Shown here: piece after piece, positions 28,101-31,956 of the stretch
How the letters are laid out: every line of letters starts with the position of its first letter
Numbering within the stretch: the stretch's first letter is position 1
NCBI GenBank assembly: GCA_002781185.1
Contig: PEUU01000020.1
Coordinates: 1 to 58,711 of the forward strand
DNA from: Candidatus Jorgensenbacteria bacterium CG03_land_8_20_14_0_80_38_39
GTDB lineage: Bacteria > Patescibacteriota > Minisyncoccia > UBA6257 > GWB1-50-10
Length of the DNA stretch: 58,711 nt
Direction of reading: 5' to 3'
The notes under the pieces: generated by a model
Databases searched by the model: none
What the model saw: only the letters and a program-made list of their open reading frames with translations
What the model was told of the DNA's origin: nothing
Made by a program: the position numbers and the translations under genes

Positions 28101-28262
28101 TAGAGCAAAGCGAATTAAAAACTTTTTTGTTGTCCCAATAATCGTGCCTCGCTAATGTTCAGCACGATTTCGACAATAAATTTAATTAATCCACGCACAG
28201 CTTCCGCTACGCGTGCCTTGTTACGACTTCACCCATGTCACCGAGCTTACCCTAACCCAGCT

Positions 28263-28396
28263 TTTTGTTCTCAAGAACAAAAAGCGGCGCTGACTTACGT
28301 TGACTAAACGCTGACCCACGCAGAATTTCTTCCGCGTCGGTCTGCGTAATGTCTGCGTTCTTCCGCGAGCTTTTTGCGCTTCAGCGCAAAAAGCTG
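28263..28396 (-). other. 16S insertion 1, tip of helix 44 (about 134 nt, no ORF)
   Basis: It is flanked by cccagc/gctggg. Two terminal mini-hairpins (ctttttgttc-tcaa-gaacaaaaag and ctttttgcgc-ttca-gcgcaaaaag) enclose an imperfect hairpin of acgc/gcgt-rich units. Confidence 0.75.
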
Positions 28397-28764
28397 GGCT
28401 TTAGGTACTCCCGGCTCCCTTGGTGTGACGGGCAGTGAGTACAGGACTCGAGAACGTATTCACCGCGGCGTGCTGATCCGCGATTACTAGCGATTCCGGC
28501 TTCATGAGGGCGAGTTGCAGCCCTCAATTCGAACTGAGACCGAGTTTGATGGGATTAGCTCCGCCTTACGGCTTAGCAACCCATTGTCCCGGCCATTGTA
28601 ACATGAGTGTCGCCCAGGGCATCAAAGGGCCATGCTGATTTGACGTCGTCCTCACCTTCCTCCGTCTATACGACGGCAGTCTCTTCTGACACTTATAACA
28701 GAAGACAAGGGTTGCGCATGTTTCCCCATTGAAGGGAGCGCCTCACGGCACATGCTGACGGCCA

Positions 28765-29699
28765 TATTATTCCATTATTACTAATGGTATGGACTATACC
28801 ATCACCCTCTTCTTTTAAGAAAAAGAAGGGGGGACCGGCGTTTTATTCTTTATTTTACAAAAGAATAAAATCTCTAAGGTCTTTTTGAGATTAAGTCTCT
28901 ACGGGGTATGAATACTGATTTTTGTAATTTTAATGAATACGGAAAAATTAAGGAAAGAAATTTTTTAGTCTCTAATCTAGAAAAATACAAACAAAAAGTT
29001 TTAGCGCTATGATAATTATAGATTTTTATTCTCCGAAAACCTAACGATTGTATAAGTATTCTGTCTTGTTCTGCCTCCTCTTTATTGCTATAAACAATAC
29101 GACAATCGCTATAAAAATCTTTTGCCACAGAACCATCTCCATCAAATCTGCCTGCCATATAAGGCGAGATCAGTTTTCTGACAATAAAATTACTTAGATT
29201 ATTCTCTAATCCCTTAAATTCCCTCAACAAAGGACGACTATTTACATATAAATGATACGCTTTGGTGCGTCTTTTAAATTTATCTGGTCTGTAAATATAA
29301 AGTTTTAATCTTTTCTCGGGGAAAAATCTCAGAAAAAATTCACGAAATTTATCTATTAACAAAGTATTAGTATTACTTATACCAATACTACTTCCCCAAT
29401 AATAACCATCTGCGCACCACAAACCTAATATATAAGCATCGTCTTTTGTCTTAAAATTCCAAAAATCAGTATTCATACTTCCCACGGTATTACCCATCTG
29501 TTCGCTTCGCGAACACGCTGATTTACGCTGATTAATACGCTGATAAACGCTGATAAAAATTCCGCGTAAATCCGCGTCAGCGCCAAAGGCGCTAAAATCC
29601 GCGTTTATCCGTGTGTTTTACGAAGTAAAATGATTAGGGCTTCACCGTTATGAGCCAGTTTTTCATTCTAAATTTCTCTAGAATGGGTCGACATTTCAA
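28765..29699 (-). mobile_element. 16S insertion 2 (E. coli position about 1050), about 935 nt intron-like element with LAGLIDADG ORF
   Basis: The conserved ctgacggccat | … | catgcagcacctgt is split, and the boundary is ambiguous by the 4-nt ccat repeat. The insertion contains several hairpins and an acgctgat/atccgcgt repeat block at 29515-29613. Confidence 0.75.
28874..29497 (-). CDS. LAGLIDADG homing endonuclease (inside the 16S insertion)
   Basis: 207 aa with two LAGLIDADG-like motifs (ILGLWCADGYYWG and YMAGRFDGDGSV). It is on the same strand as the rRNA. Confidence 0.8.
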   Translation of the reverse strand: MGNTVGSMNTDFWNFKTKDDAYILGLWCADGYYWGSSIGISNTNTLLIDKFREFFLRFFPEKRLKLYIYRPDKFKRRTKAYHLYVNSRPLLREFKGLENNLSNFIVRKLISPYMAGRFDGDGSVAKDFYSDCRIVYSNKEEAEQDRILIQSLGFRRIKIYNYHSAKTFCLYFSRLETKKFLSLIFPYSLKLQKSVFIPRRDLISKRP

Positions 29700-29967
29700 C
29701 CATGCAGCACCTGTCCCGGCGTCCTTGAAAGAAAATTTTCCTTTCGGAAAATCGTCACCGGGATTTCAAGCCCTGGTAAGGTTCCTCGCTTACCATCGAA
29801 TTAAACCTCATGTTCCACCGCTTGTGCGAGTCCCCGTCTATTCCTTTGAGTTTTAGCCTTGCGGCCGTACTTCCCAGGCGGTCCACTTAATGCGTTAGCT
29901 ACGCCACTCCGAGGGTCGATACTCGAAACAGCTAGTGGACATCGTTTAGGGCGTGGACTACAAGGGT

Positions 29968-30337
29968 CAAGTTGTTACTTCGTAACAATCGCAGACTTAC
30001 GCTGACTTCACGCTGACTTACGCAGAAGTAAACGTAGACACGAGTTACGCGACACAGACATTTCTGCTGTGTTCTGTATATCGCTATACAGGTCGGACTA
30101 TATCTTCACCCGTTTAAATTTTACTTGTGTAAAATTTTGACGGGGTTTGGCGTGTAGTCTCTACGGAGTCCTGTTAGTCATAACAGGTTCCCTCGGTGTT
30201 TTCCATAAAATGGATTTTCACCGATATAGCCAAATTACACTTTAATATTGCTACTAAATGAGACACCATTGTTGCTTCGTGTCCGCGTCAGTCCGCGTTA
30301 AGTCCGCGTCTGTCTGCGGTTTCGCGAAGCGAAACGT
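29968..30337 (-). other. 16S insertion 3, within the 785-806 block (about 370 nt, no ORF)
   Basis: It splits ggactacaagggt | atctaatcc. The ends carry inverted GCGT-rich repeat arms (29989-30035 versus 30279-30320) and terminal mini-hairpins (gttgttac-ttc-gtaacaa and gtttcgc-gaa-gcgaaac). Confidence 0.75.
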
Positions 30338-30653
30338 ATCTAATCCTTTTTGCTCCCCACGCTTTCGCGCCTCAGGGTCAGGAACGTCCCAGCAGAATGC
30401 CTTCGCCTTTGGTGTTCCAGCCGATATCAACGGATTTCACCCCTACACCGGCTGTTCCATCTGCCTCTAACGCCCTCAATCCCGCTCATCTCTTCAGCGG
30501 CCTTAGGGTTAAGCCCTAAGATTTAACTGAAGATGCAGCGGGACCCCTACGCGCCCTTTACGCCCAATAAATCCGGATAACGCTTGGGGCCTTCGTATTA
30601 CCGCGGCTGCTGGCACGAAGTTTGCCACCCCTTATTCTATTCCTACTATCAAT

Positions 30654-30789
30654 CGTGTCTCGCTATCGCTCATCACCTTACGATTCCAAACTACGAATGC
30701 ATCCGAATCTACGAAAATAAATTTCAAATTTGTAGATTCGCATCAATTTGTAGTTTTGGATCGGTAGTGTCGAACAATAGTGAGACACG
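30654..30789 (-). other. 16S insertion 4, V3 region (about 136-nt hairpin)
   Basis: The outer stem is cgtgtctc…gagacacg. The inner arms are gattccaaactacgaatgcatccgaatctacgaa (30682-30715) and its imperfect complement (30729-30763). Confidence 0.7.
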
Positions 30790-31044
30790 ACTTTATCGGA
30801 ATAAAAAGCAGTTTACAACCCTAGGGCCTTCATCCTGCACGCGGCGTCGCTCGATCAGGCTTTCGCCCATTGTCGAATATTCTCGACTGCTGCCTCCCGT
30901 AGGAGTACGTTCCGTGTCTCAGTAACGTCGTTGGGGAATAGCCTCTCAGCTCCCCTACCCGTCGTCGCCTTGGTGGGCCATTACCTCACCAACAAGCTGA
31001 TAGGACCTAGGCCGCTCCCGAAGCGACTTGCGTCTTTACTGGTA

Positions 31045-31205
31045 ATTGGATTTTATTCGCAAGTCGCTTCAGAATTTCTAATTTCTAATTTTTAATTTCT
31101 AATAAATGATTTAATGACTTAATGTTTAAAAATTAAATCACTAAAAATTGATTGAAAATTTAAAATTGAAAATTGAAAATTGAAGAACTTGTAAACAAAA
31201 TCCAA
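31045..31205 (-). other. 16S insertion 5, helix 10 / V2 region (about 160 nt)
   Basis: The stem is ctggtaattggatttt / aaaatccaactaccag. The arms are heptamer arrays aatttct x4 and attgaaa x5. Confidence 0.65.
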
Positions 31206-31295
31206 CTACCAGACTATAGGATATTACCCAATCTTTCGACTGGCTATTTCCTACTTTGGGGTATGTACCAAGGTGTTACTAACTCGTTCGCCACT

Positions 31296-31730
31296 GTCAG
31301 ACATCAGACATTAGAAATCGGATTTCGGATTTTTTGAATTAATGAATTAATTTGTTTTGATTCCACTTTATATTCTTCGATTAATGCATCGCAATTTCCA
31401 CAATTTACATTGGAAAAGTTTAAAATTCTTATCTGCCACAAATGCGTAATTGTTTCATCTGAGGAACCAAGCGCCATATAAAGAAAACGTTTGAATTCGT
31501 TTTGCGAGTTCTTTTTTGCGAATCCCTCAGTAATCTGAGCGGAAATCGCTTTGGCTGAATTACAAACTTGAGATTTTAATTCAAATTCGTTTCGTGGCAA
31601 TTGATTTACCAGTTCATAAATTCTCGGCAATAAATCCATTGCCCTTTTATAAATTTGTAATTCCGTTACGTCTTTCATTAAATCCAATTATATCACCCGA
31701 AATCTGAACTCTGAAGTCTGATATCTGACC
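31296..31730 (-). mobile_element. 16S insertion 6, helix 6 / V1 (about 435 nt) carrying a four-helix-bundle ORF
   Basis: It splits cgttcgccact | cgttcgacttgcatg. Inverted arms gtcagacatcagacattagaaatcggatttcgg (31296-) and ccgaaatctgaactctgaagtctgatatctgac (-31730) can form a long stem around the ORF. Confidence 0.8.
31304..31687 (-). CDS. Four-helix-bundle protein of the 23S rRNA intervening-sequence protein family
   Basis: 127 aa. IYKRAMDLLPRIYELVNQLPRNEFELKSQVCNSAKAISAQITEGFAK…GSSDETITHL resembles the S23p / IVS four-helix-bundle family. It is paralogous to 43238-43621. Confidence 0.75.
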   Translation of the reverse strand: MDLMKDVTELQIYKRAMDLLPRIYELVNQLPRNEFELKSQVCNSAKAISAQITEGFAKKNSQNEFKRFLYMALGSSDETITHLWQIRILNFSNVNCGNCDALIEEYKVESKQINSLIQKIRNPISNV

Positions 31731-31956
31731 GTTCGACTTGCATGCCTTATCCACGCCGCCAGCGTTCATCCTGGACCAGGATCAAATCCTCTAAGAAATG
31801 CGGATGAACGCAGATATATACGCAGATAAACACAGATAAACAAGTTATCCGCGTAGACCCGCGTTTTAATCCACGTAAATCCGCGTCAAAATTGGGACAA
31901 CAAAAAAATCTTTAATTTTTAATTGTAAATGTTCATTCAGCATCATTCCGAATATC

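Follow-up and report, generated by a model that had tools for sequence, protein, structure and literature searches.

Two group I introns and four helix-tip rods in the 16S rRNA gene of a groundwater Parcubacteria-group bacterium

Contig PEUU01000020.1 of Candidatus Jorgensenbacteria bacterium CG03_land_8_20_14_0_80_38_39 (58,711 nt, the whole of which is called the window here) carries on its minus strand a 16S rRNA gene that is interrupted by six insertions. The region is the functional 16S gene of a groundwater Parcubacteria-group bacterium of the candidate phyla radiation (CPR), and it is probably single-copy. We consider it likely that this gene works with two self-splicing group I introns, after positions U793 and U1060 of the E. 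coli numbering, and with four rod-shaped intervening sequences (IVSs) at the tips of helices h6, h10, h17 and h44. The six-insertion gene is real and is ordinary for its clade, because relatives exceed it and its features have already been documented for CPR bacteria; it belongs to a known CPR habit and is no new phenomenon. The part that has been less described is a modest one, namely rods built from tandem units of 7-11 nt, which are also found in the introns, in the pre-rRNA leader and at the flanks of a second four-helix-bundle gene, with related arrays inside tpiA.

The first-pass annotation of this DNA regarded six insertions as extreme, which was not upheld. In L193 (L labels denote the comparison loci that were fetched) the 16S gene is at least 4.67 kb long and contains the same set: its h6 IVS and U1060 intron are homologous, h10 and h17 bear rods, and an S788 intron replaces S793. 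Up to 16 insertions per rRNA gene are given by Tsurumaki et al. 2024 (PMC11270868). The same paper gives insertions of at least 100 bp in 48% of CPR 16S genes and a maximum insertion total of 5,627 bp for a 16S gene. Five insertions were found in the first 800 nt of the L033 16S gene, and L049 has five. The CPR insertions described in PMC11270868 resemble those of the window in being multiple per 16S gene, at conserved as well as variable sites, and in including group I introns with LAGLIDADG_3 open reading frames (ORFs), PF05635 ORFs and many unclassified insertions below 200 bp; the window differs in representing one specific lineage and one specific combination. Within the clade, the h6 IVS gene and the h10 and h17 rods have been inherited over deep divergence, while the introns come and go and shift between sites 788 and 793.

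Identity of the gene and its host

The Rfam search returned a full-length small-subunit (SSU) rRNA match at 31331..28181 (-) with RF01959, the archaeal model (703.6 bits, model positions 1-1478). This model was the winner of the clan competition; the proteins and relatives of the window are nonetheless those of bacterial CPR. In a restricted search, positions 1-140 of the bacterial model RF00177 were matched from 31797, spanning a 413-nt gap at the h6 loop, and the true 5' end of the gene is therefore 31797. Insertions were detected by low-gap-extension alignment to E. coli rrsH (L001), and their boundaries were fixed by alignment to L177, an insertion-free metagenome relative (Table 1).

All universal 16S blocks are intact and colinear with both E. 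coli and L177 (Rfam; pairwise alignments). The six insertions sum to 2,089 nt, leaving 3,617 - 2,089 = 1,528 nt, which is normal for a 16S gene. The first-pass annotation of a CPR-type 16S gene at 28180-31797, with all universal blocks present and six insertions at the helices it named, is therefore borne out by the Rfam result and both alignments, in which the insertions appear as six clean gaps. One insertion does split the 806 primer site (806R) and another lies at the h44 tip, as had been proposed. With 806R split and the 1050-1060 region interrupted, the gene is an example of why universal primers miss Parcubacteria, and it can serve as an annotation reference, in which the predicted splice sites and the limits of the helices are exact for one lineage.

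Table 1. Coordinates of the 16S rRNA gene, its insertions and its flanking RNA elements in the window
Feature	Position	Strand	Size	Basis
16S rRNA gene	31797..28181	(-)	3,617 nt total; 1,528 nt rRNA proper	Rfam SSU models; alignments to E. coli rrsH and L177
Leader-trailer processing stem (predicted)	31891..31916 (5' strand) with 28114..28139 (3' strand)	(-)	26 nt	Sequence reading; duplexfold
Pre-rRNA leader rod hairpin, ACGCGGA/UCUGCGU units	31800..31887	(-)		Fold -44.1 kcal/mol, z = -9.5
h6 intervening sequence	31296..31727; net insertion 31716..31301	(-)	+416 nt net	413-nt gap; inverted repeat I3; z = -7.3
Four-helix-bundle (23S rRNA IVS protein family) gene	31304..31678	(-)	124 aa from ATG; 127 aa from TTG at 31687	
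h10 rod hairpin	within 31216..31039	(-)	+118 nt net	157-nt gap; fold -60.9 kcal/mol, z = -10.5; L177 boundaries
h17 (V3) rod hairpin	within 30800..30654	(-)	+123 nt net	147-nt gap; inverted repeats I4, I12; L177 boundaries
ORF-less group I intron after E. coli U793 (790 loop)	30337..29968	(-)	370 nt	Rfam RF00028; exact gap against L177
Peripheral module of the U793 intron	30335..29972	(-)		Inverted repeat I1; joined-arm fold z = -6.0
Group I intron after E. coli U1060 (helix 34)	29697..28763	(-)	935 nt	Exact gap against L177; covariation
GCGT-unit hairpin module in L5 of the U1060 intron	29501..29630	(-)	~130 nt	Five-intron comparison; fold z = -3.7
P6 of the U1060 intron	29451-29478 with 28906-28933	(-)	28-bp stem	Inverted repeat I5, 96% complementary; compensatory changes, five homologues
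LAGLIDADG homing endonuclease gene	28874..29497	(-)	207 aa	PF14528 LAGLIDADG_3
Distal h44 with GCGT-unit module	within 28414..28241	(-)	+127 nt net	Fold -98.6 kcal/mol, z = -11.1

The 3.85-kb region was recovered at 99.8-100% identity, wherever contigs cover it, in five assemblies (JGI 3300025021, ENA ERZ27293411, ENA ERZ27293349, JGI 3300007965 and NCBI GCA_002790415.1). As identical sequence was obtained in independent assemblies from at least five samples, a chimera is excluded. The NCBI contig of the same organism stops within the LAGLIDADG ORF, and the neighbouring L25 protein was found in 66 index blocks of the sequence collection.

A 23-mer from the 530 region was found, among GTDB species representatives, only in metagenome-assembled genomes (MAGs) of CPR/Patescibacteria, with 65 CPR loci returned, of which none exceeds ~86% identity in 16S. 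A lineage-specific h36 25-mer had no match in the scan of genome contigs, and the genome is evidently not among the GTDB representatives. The nearest 16S genes (84-87% identity) were those of L071 (Ca. Jorgensenbacteria), L104, L148/L193, L174 and L177, which resemble Jorgensenbacteria, Wolfebacteria and Harrisonbacteria. For the endonuclease and TpiA, the best homologues come from Niyogibacteria, Harrisonbacteria, Wolfebacteria, Jorgensenbacteria and Colwellbacteria, and a Harrisonbacteria MAG and another relative share with the window the gene order RF1 - L31 - 16S - response regulator - pilin - T2SS-E. Elsewhere in the 58.7-kb window no tRNA gene (ARAGORN) and no 23S or 5S gene (Rfam) was found, in agreement with the earlier remark that the gene is unlinked from them; unlinked rRNA genes are already known in Patescibacteria (bioRxiv 705046).

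Three further observations concern the rRNA proper. The h35-36 region (28716-28750, -) reads GUGAGGCGCUCCCUUCAAUGGGGAAACAUGCGC, compared with GUUGGGUUAAGUCCCGCAACGAGCGC in E. coli, the h36 stem being flipped from GGG/CCC to CCC/GGG; as this divergence is common to the insertion-free L177 and to L174, it marks the lineage and does not reflect damage. The 16S 3' end (28181-28196, -) reads GCGUGGAUUAAUUAAA, without the CCUCC anti-Shine-Dalgarno motif, which L174 and L177 likewise lack; its loss is already known for a Parcubacteria subgroup (PMC9297842). In L005, a strain from another sample, six substitutions are clustered in a 21-nt stretch of 16S exon (28572-28592, -), with no further differences from the window across 3.4 kb, and these may represent a helix swap or a recombination patch.

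Two group I introns in conserved 16S sites

The two introns lie in the 790 loop and in helix 34, which are functionally critical and universally conserved, and therefore only their exact removal is compatible with function. The intron after U793 passed the gathering threshold of RF00028 (76.9 bits against 50, E = 8e-18, model positions 1-253), with the ribozyme core at 30283..30074 and the omega-G at 29968. In the alignment L177 reads straight through at this position. The junctions are GGAUUAGAU / AC...CUUG / ACCCUUGUAGUCC (3' exon ACCCUUG), with U at position -1 and G as the last intron base. The internal guide sequence (IGS) GGUGUCU (AAUGGUGUC, 30261-30267) can base-pair with GAU of the exon and with AC at the start of the intron, giving the U793.G pair. 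The IGS is identical in L104, whose intron also occupies S793; only these two sequences share the site, and the splice-site and IGS support for this intron is a sequence fit and not covariation.

Homologous group I introns are found at S788 in L193, L174 and L081, compared with S793 in the window and L104. The S788 introns, which lie five bases upstream, carry GUCC, complementary to GGAU, where the S793 guide is GUGUC. This is an apparent shift of intron site, with the guide changing to match.

The earlier reading of the U793 insertion had recognised its architecture, shared with the h44 insertion, of mini-hairpin, GCGT-rich arm, complementary arm and second mini-hairpin. This layout is confirmed for both insertions; the group I nature of the U793 insertion had been missed, and its GCGT arms are peripheral elements of the intron. 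Its mini-hairpins lie at 30319-30335 (UUCG) and at 29972-29988 (GAAG, directly before the omega-G). An ACGCGGA-unit arm in the P1 loop (30281-30318) is predicted to pair with a UCAGCGU-unit arm (29990-30025) across the entire core, and inverted repeat I1 is 40 nt long and 80% complementary.

The insertion previously put at about position 1050 is present, and its exact site is after U1060. The ligated junction GCATGGTTGCCGTCAGC is present exactly in the intron-less L174 and L177. Homologous introns were found at the same 16S site in four fetched loci, L193-L196, which with the window gives five sequences for comparison. In P1, exon GG(U/C)U faces IGS G(A/G)C(C/U) and the U.G pair is invariant. 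In P3 the paired strands are CUGGC/GCCGG, CUGGC/GCCAG, CCGGC/GCCGG, CUAGC/GCUAG and UCGGC/GCCGA. Over P1, P3 and a 26-bp stretch of P6, 97.1% of cells are paired and 11 of the 35 pairs have changed on both sides, in an alignment that was extracted by hand from the five homologues and leans towards structure; none of 500 shuffles reached the observed pairing, and slid controls gave 28-49%. The strands of P1 (IGS), P3, P6, P7 and P9 could be located, together with R- and S-like motifs and the omega-G. Two hairpins lie between the 5' strand of P7 (GUAGAGACUU) and P3', and we take them to resemble the P7.1/P7.2 helices of subgroup IA. The U1060 insertion is thus also a group I intron, and it looks IA-like.

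As previously reported, the U1060 insertion encodes a LAGLIDADG endonuclease (PF14528, 38.1 bits against a threshold of 22.5, E = 1.9e-9). The ORF is intact and has two motifs, LGLWCADGY and MAGRFDGDGS. In the PDB search only a weak alignment to I-DmoI was found (E = 0.22), which covers both motifs. There are at least 700 homologues, up to 88% identical, and a dN/dS of ~0.15 indicates purifying selection. The gene starts in the 3' strands of P5/P4, has its body in the P6 loop and stops in P7.1, and the opening and closing stretches of its coding sequence form the P6 stem. According to PMC11270868, LAGLIDADG_3 ORFs occur only in 16S insertions, mostly group I introns.

The L5 module of this intron has mini-hairpins at 29616-29630, 29580-29592 and 29501-29513. 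The four homologous introns have only a ~24-nt hairpin at L5, and the module of the window is therefore a secondary insertion.

Both introns resemble known SSU group I introns in having U at -1 opposite an IGS G, an omega-G and the P, Q, R and S motifs, and in the case of U1060 an endonuclease ORF in a peripheral loop that overlaps core strands. Their sites are near the known SSU intron sites 788/789/793 and 1046-1062, which are occupied mostly in eukaryotic nuclear and organellar genes. They differ from these introns in their bacterial host, in the lineage-specific tandem-unit rods of the P1 loop and 3' tail of the U793 intron and of L5 of the U1060 intron, and in the IA-like character (P7.1/P7.2) and poor RF00028 score of the latter.

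Rods at helix tips and their processing

The insertions at h6, h10, h17 and h44 have stems of ~30-45 bp, above the 20 bp taken as the criterion for an IVS. Those at h10, h17 and h44 carry no ORF, and each folds as a single long rod. The h10 rod is AT-rich, with 7-nt tandem units ATTGAAA / AATTTCT, the h17 rod folds at -68.0 kcal/mol (z = -8.0), and the h44 module has mini-hairpins at 28368-28395 and 28260-28285 with arms at 28329-28367 and 28287-28325. A further rod in the pre-rRNA leader ends 2 nt before the 16S 5' end, and L071 has an equivalent leader hairpin. Outside this rod, leader and trailer are complementary over a stretch that is predicted to be the usual pre-16S processing stem; duplexfold was too permissive on long leader and trailer stretches for a useful z-score, and the 26-bp stem was read from the sequence.

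The h6 arms are made of 7-nt UCAGAnn units (31696-31730 and 31294-31328) that form a ~36-bp stem with 31 of 36 positions paired. In L193, 33 of 36 positions are paired, with three compensatory and six wobble-compatible changes relative to the window. The ORF enclosed by these arms had been assigned to a four-helix-bundle family otherwise known from 23S rRNA. The assignment was supported (PF05635, 72.7 bits against a threshold of 33.8, E = 3.4e-20; TIGR02436, 76.5 bits against 24, E = 1.7e-21; similarity to PDB 2gsc, E = 1.7e-5). The restriction to 23S was not, as PF05635 ORFs are given for 18 CPR 16S insertions in PMC11270868. An orthologue with a 69% identical protein occupies the same site in L193, whose 16S is 83-87% identical, and pN of 0.18 against pS of 0.78 (saturated) indicates purifying selection. 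From its build, the h6 insertion can be read as a classical ORF-bearing IVS that is sited in 16S.

Intervening sequences in 23S rRNA that are excised by RNase III and carry an S23p/four-helix-bundle ORF are known from Coxiella burnetii (PMC4990558), Leptospira and others. The h6 insertion resembles that of Coxiella (PMC4990558) in being a helix-tip insertion of ~430 nt with a long flanking stem and a PF05635-family ORF inside, and in belonging to an organism whose genome is reduced and probably has only one such rRNA gene. The h6 insertion differs in its location in 16S h6 instead of 23S helix 45, in its tandem-heptad arms, in that its cleavage is a prediction, and in that the window has a second, similar cassette outside rRNA.

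This second cassette (43189-43671, -) carries a PF05635 gene at 43238-43621 (E = 1.2e-39; also a bAvd-like match) and lies between split transketolase genes (43676-44536 and 42057-43049). It has the same layout as the h6 insertion, its flanks being complementary heptad-repeat arms with UAGGAGUUAGUAU-type units and CUACUAA. The cassette is therefore not rRNA-specific. A recent duplication of the cassette was rejected, as the protein encoded here is only a distant relative of the h6 protein (BLASTP E = 0.083).

We propose that both introns would self-splice through the U.G pair of P1, by guanosine attack and exon ligation after the omega-G. The endonuclease would cut intron-less alleles at GCATGGTT / GCCGTCAGC, a target carried in GGTGCTGCATGGTTGCCGTCAGCATGTGCC, and could thereby spread the U1060 intron by homing. 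The rods, which extend the solvent-exposed tips of h6, h10, h17 and h44, would act as intervening sequences. The most likely route is that they are transcribed as part of the pre-rRNA, after which an RNase III-type enzyme would cleave their long stems and also the 26-bp leader-trailer stem. Excision of the rods would leave a fragmented yet functional 16S rRNA, and that of the h6 rod could release the mRNA of the four-helix-bundle protein. The tandem-unit module has colonised non-essential loops of both introns secondarily.

Several points weigh against this proposal. No RNase III gene (rnc) was seen among the scanned ORFs of the window. The pairing of the P1-loop arm with the 3' tail in the U793 intron would give a pseudoknot-like topology. 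The U1060 intron reached only 24.8 bits with RF00028, against the gathering threshold of 50, and only P8-P7-P9 aligned; the insertion searched alone in Rfam gave, besides this sub-threshold match, chance microRNA and small RNA matches only. The score can be explained by the ORF, the L5 module and P7.1/P7.2, which disrupt the model; the group I nature of the insertion is supported by covariation in P1, P3 and P6.

In addition, helix-tip rods could be equally tolerable as expansion segments. The four rods may then not be excised at all, but retained in the mature 16S rRNA on the 30S surface, which we regard as possible though rather doubtful. All four are located at solvent-exposed helix tips, and expansion segments of eukaryotes and archaea are found at such sites. 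Expansion of these helices is also seen in L071, L104, L193 and L174 across ~13-16% 16S divergence, and the tetraloop mini-hairpins suggest selection for orderly RNA folding. However, RNase III classically acts on long, nearly perfect stems, as it does in the intervening sequences of 23S rRNA; the gene inside the h6 rod is under purifying selection and would be hard to translate within a ribosome; and the unit sequences turn over fast between relatives. CPR rRNA insertions were also found to be removed from transcripts by Brown et al. 2015, as summarised in PMC11270868, which favours rod excision by the example of other CPR organisms.

Tandem-unit modules across the clade and neighbouring genes

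The module of mini-hairpin, tandem-unit arm, complementary arm and mini-hairpin is also present in L071 (Jorgensenbacteria), at h6, h10, h17 and the leader, with ACGCAGA/UCUGCGU units at h6. In L104, L193, L174 and L081 modules are located at rRNA tips and inside group I introns (P5, P8, before the omega-G). Tandem arrays with a period of 6-14 nt, mostly 7, occur in 26 of the 43 distinct short insertions (90-330 nt) taken from the fetched CPR 16S genes, compared with 0.25 in shuffles. The modules share only a unit family of 7-11 nt and not their overall sequence, and the two flanking mini-hairpins are alike within some modules (h44; h6 and h10 of L071) and not within others. The ACGCGGA-type unit family is found at six places in the 58.7 kb (14 matches against 4.4 expected). 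Among the fetched loci, 1.36 Mb in all, arrays of at least three GCGT units were confined to the window and L071. The modules, in their four-way-junction form, were also considered as tRNA-like, which was dropped, since ARAGORN gave no match and the loops are tetraloops.

These rods occur at rRNA helix tips, in peripheral loops of group I introns (P1, L5, P8, P9), in the pre-rRNA leader and at four-helix-bundle flanks. We would suggest, very tentatively and with the odds against it, that the short unclassified rRNA insertions of Parcubacteria form one coherent undescribed class, 7-11-nt tandem-unit rods bracketed by tetraloop mini-hairpins. If this is true, a sequence-specific partner would be implied, either an RNA-processing enzyme or an RNA-binding factor, for which the four-helix-bundle protein is one conceivable candidate; the alternative to a partner would be dedicated copying at the DNA level, beyond random slippage. 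If the rods hold up as a class, the nature and processing of unclassified CPR insertions becomes a testable question for the Crystal Geyser and Hainich metatranscriptomes.

Other repeat systems share some of these characters. Rickettsia palindromic elements are near-identical hairpin repeats of 100-150 bp, located in frame in protein genes and also in RNA genes and spacers. The elements of the window are similar as hairpin-forming repeats in protein genes, RNA genes and spacers, and differ in that the copies share only a short unit. Tandem heptamer repeats are known in cyanobacteria as short tandemly repeated repetitive (STRR) sequences. Heptamer direct repeats whose function is unknown have been described in Beggiatoaceae, cyanobacteria and Bacteroidetes (PMC4679880), and the window arrays resemble them in their 7-nt units, in 2 to ~9 copies at many loci and occasionally in ORFs, and in a patchy phylogenetic distribution and unknown function. 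Unlike these heptamers, the window arrays are mostly pairs of complementary arms that form rods in structured RNAs, and they also have periods of 10-11 nt. No paper joining heptamer repeats with CPR was found in the literature searched, and the tandem-unit and mini-hairpin build of short insertions and their nesting in introns are not described in the accessible text of PMC11270868.

Related arrays were also observed in protein genes. The tpiA gene (14404-15234, -) has three in-frame tandem arrays (14812-14867, 14691-14737 and 14546-14577), the first of which consists of five copies of the 11-nt ACGCGGACTGA, read as QRGQTRTERGLTWTERGLTQ, a unit that belongs to the family seen in the arms of the rRNA and the introns. 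Five of 11 distant Parcubacteria TpiA homologues have this array in the same loop. The tpiA genes of L197 and L198 carry 11-nt units in their DNA, and in L198 two arrays are complementary arms that flank the segment coding for helix 4. The nucleotide identity of the array is 0.82-0.84, against ~0.58 gene-wide, and this higher conservation suggests constraint and not junk. No explanation that we examined accounts for the tpiA arrays. A 1,774-aa ORF (49461-54785, -) also has in-frame arrays of GCGGA units (10-11 nt) and of TGTTGGT (7 nt) at 52605-52646 and 52465-52501, translated as ICPYESASSPHLSAP and TNNQQQTTNNQQQ.

The modules could alternatively be selfish DNA elements, similar to miniature inverted-repeat transposable elements (MITEs) or palindromic elements, that spread at the DNA level into tolerated sites without a role as RNA. 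We think this unlikely. The recurrence of the unit family in the window, the nesting of a module in L5 of the U1060 intron and its absence from the four homologous introns, the in-frame arrays of tpiA and the 1,774-aa ORF, and the excess of tandem arrays among short CPR 16S insertions would all fit such a spread. However, near-identical copies, terminal repeats, target duplications or a transposase were not identified for the modules, so that they do not qualify as MITEs. The complementarity of the arms has been kept by compensatory change between the h6 rods of the window and L193, the stable tetraloops point to selection at the RNA level, and the conservation of the tpiA array suggests constraint. 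By comparison, it is hardly credible that the working 16S lies elsewhere and that this rRNA gene is decaying or was assembled wrongly, as its unusual length of 3.6 kb, the best score of the archaeal Rfam model, the divergent h35-h36 and the 3' end without CCUCC might suggest; a pseudogene and a mis-assembly were both rejected from the independent assemblies (at least five, agreeing at 99.8% or more) and the L177 alignment, given that the universal blocks are intact and colinear, that h35-h36 and the 3' end are common to the insertion-free L177 and to L174, that the synteny L31 - 16S - response regulator - pilin is kept in relatives and that both ORFs are under purifying selection.

Besides the introns and rods, other repeats were seen in the window and its relatives. 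In L071, near-identical CTACGAAT-type arrays at 2582-2619 and 2941-2977 flank the L31 gene as direct repeats; the h17 arms of the window consist of the same type of unit. A 70-nt unit with TCTGCGGATA sub-repeats is repeated 2.1 times (49210-49353, 98% identical) immediately downstream of the 1,774-aa ORF, and dense tandem arrays of 14, 15 and 21 nt (45359-45545) follow a PaaX-like gene.

Among the remaining genes, a full-length serpin gene (359-1690, +; PF00079, E = 2e-121) is located on this small-genome CPR contig, and a 2,273-aa ORF lies at 4713-11534 (-). Approximately 0.6 kb downstream of the 16S gene, a 74-aa GIY-YIG ORF (27323-27547, -) occupies a hairpin loop (CACCCCGCCCTCTAAGC ... AGAGGGCGGGG). 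In L003, the strain of another sample, this ORF is replaced by ~70 nt of unrelated sequence (about 1040-1110 of L003), a presence/absence polymorphism of a possible homing-type cassette.

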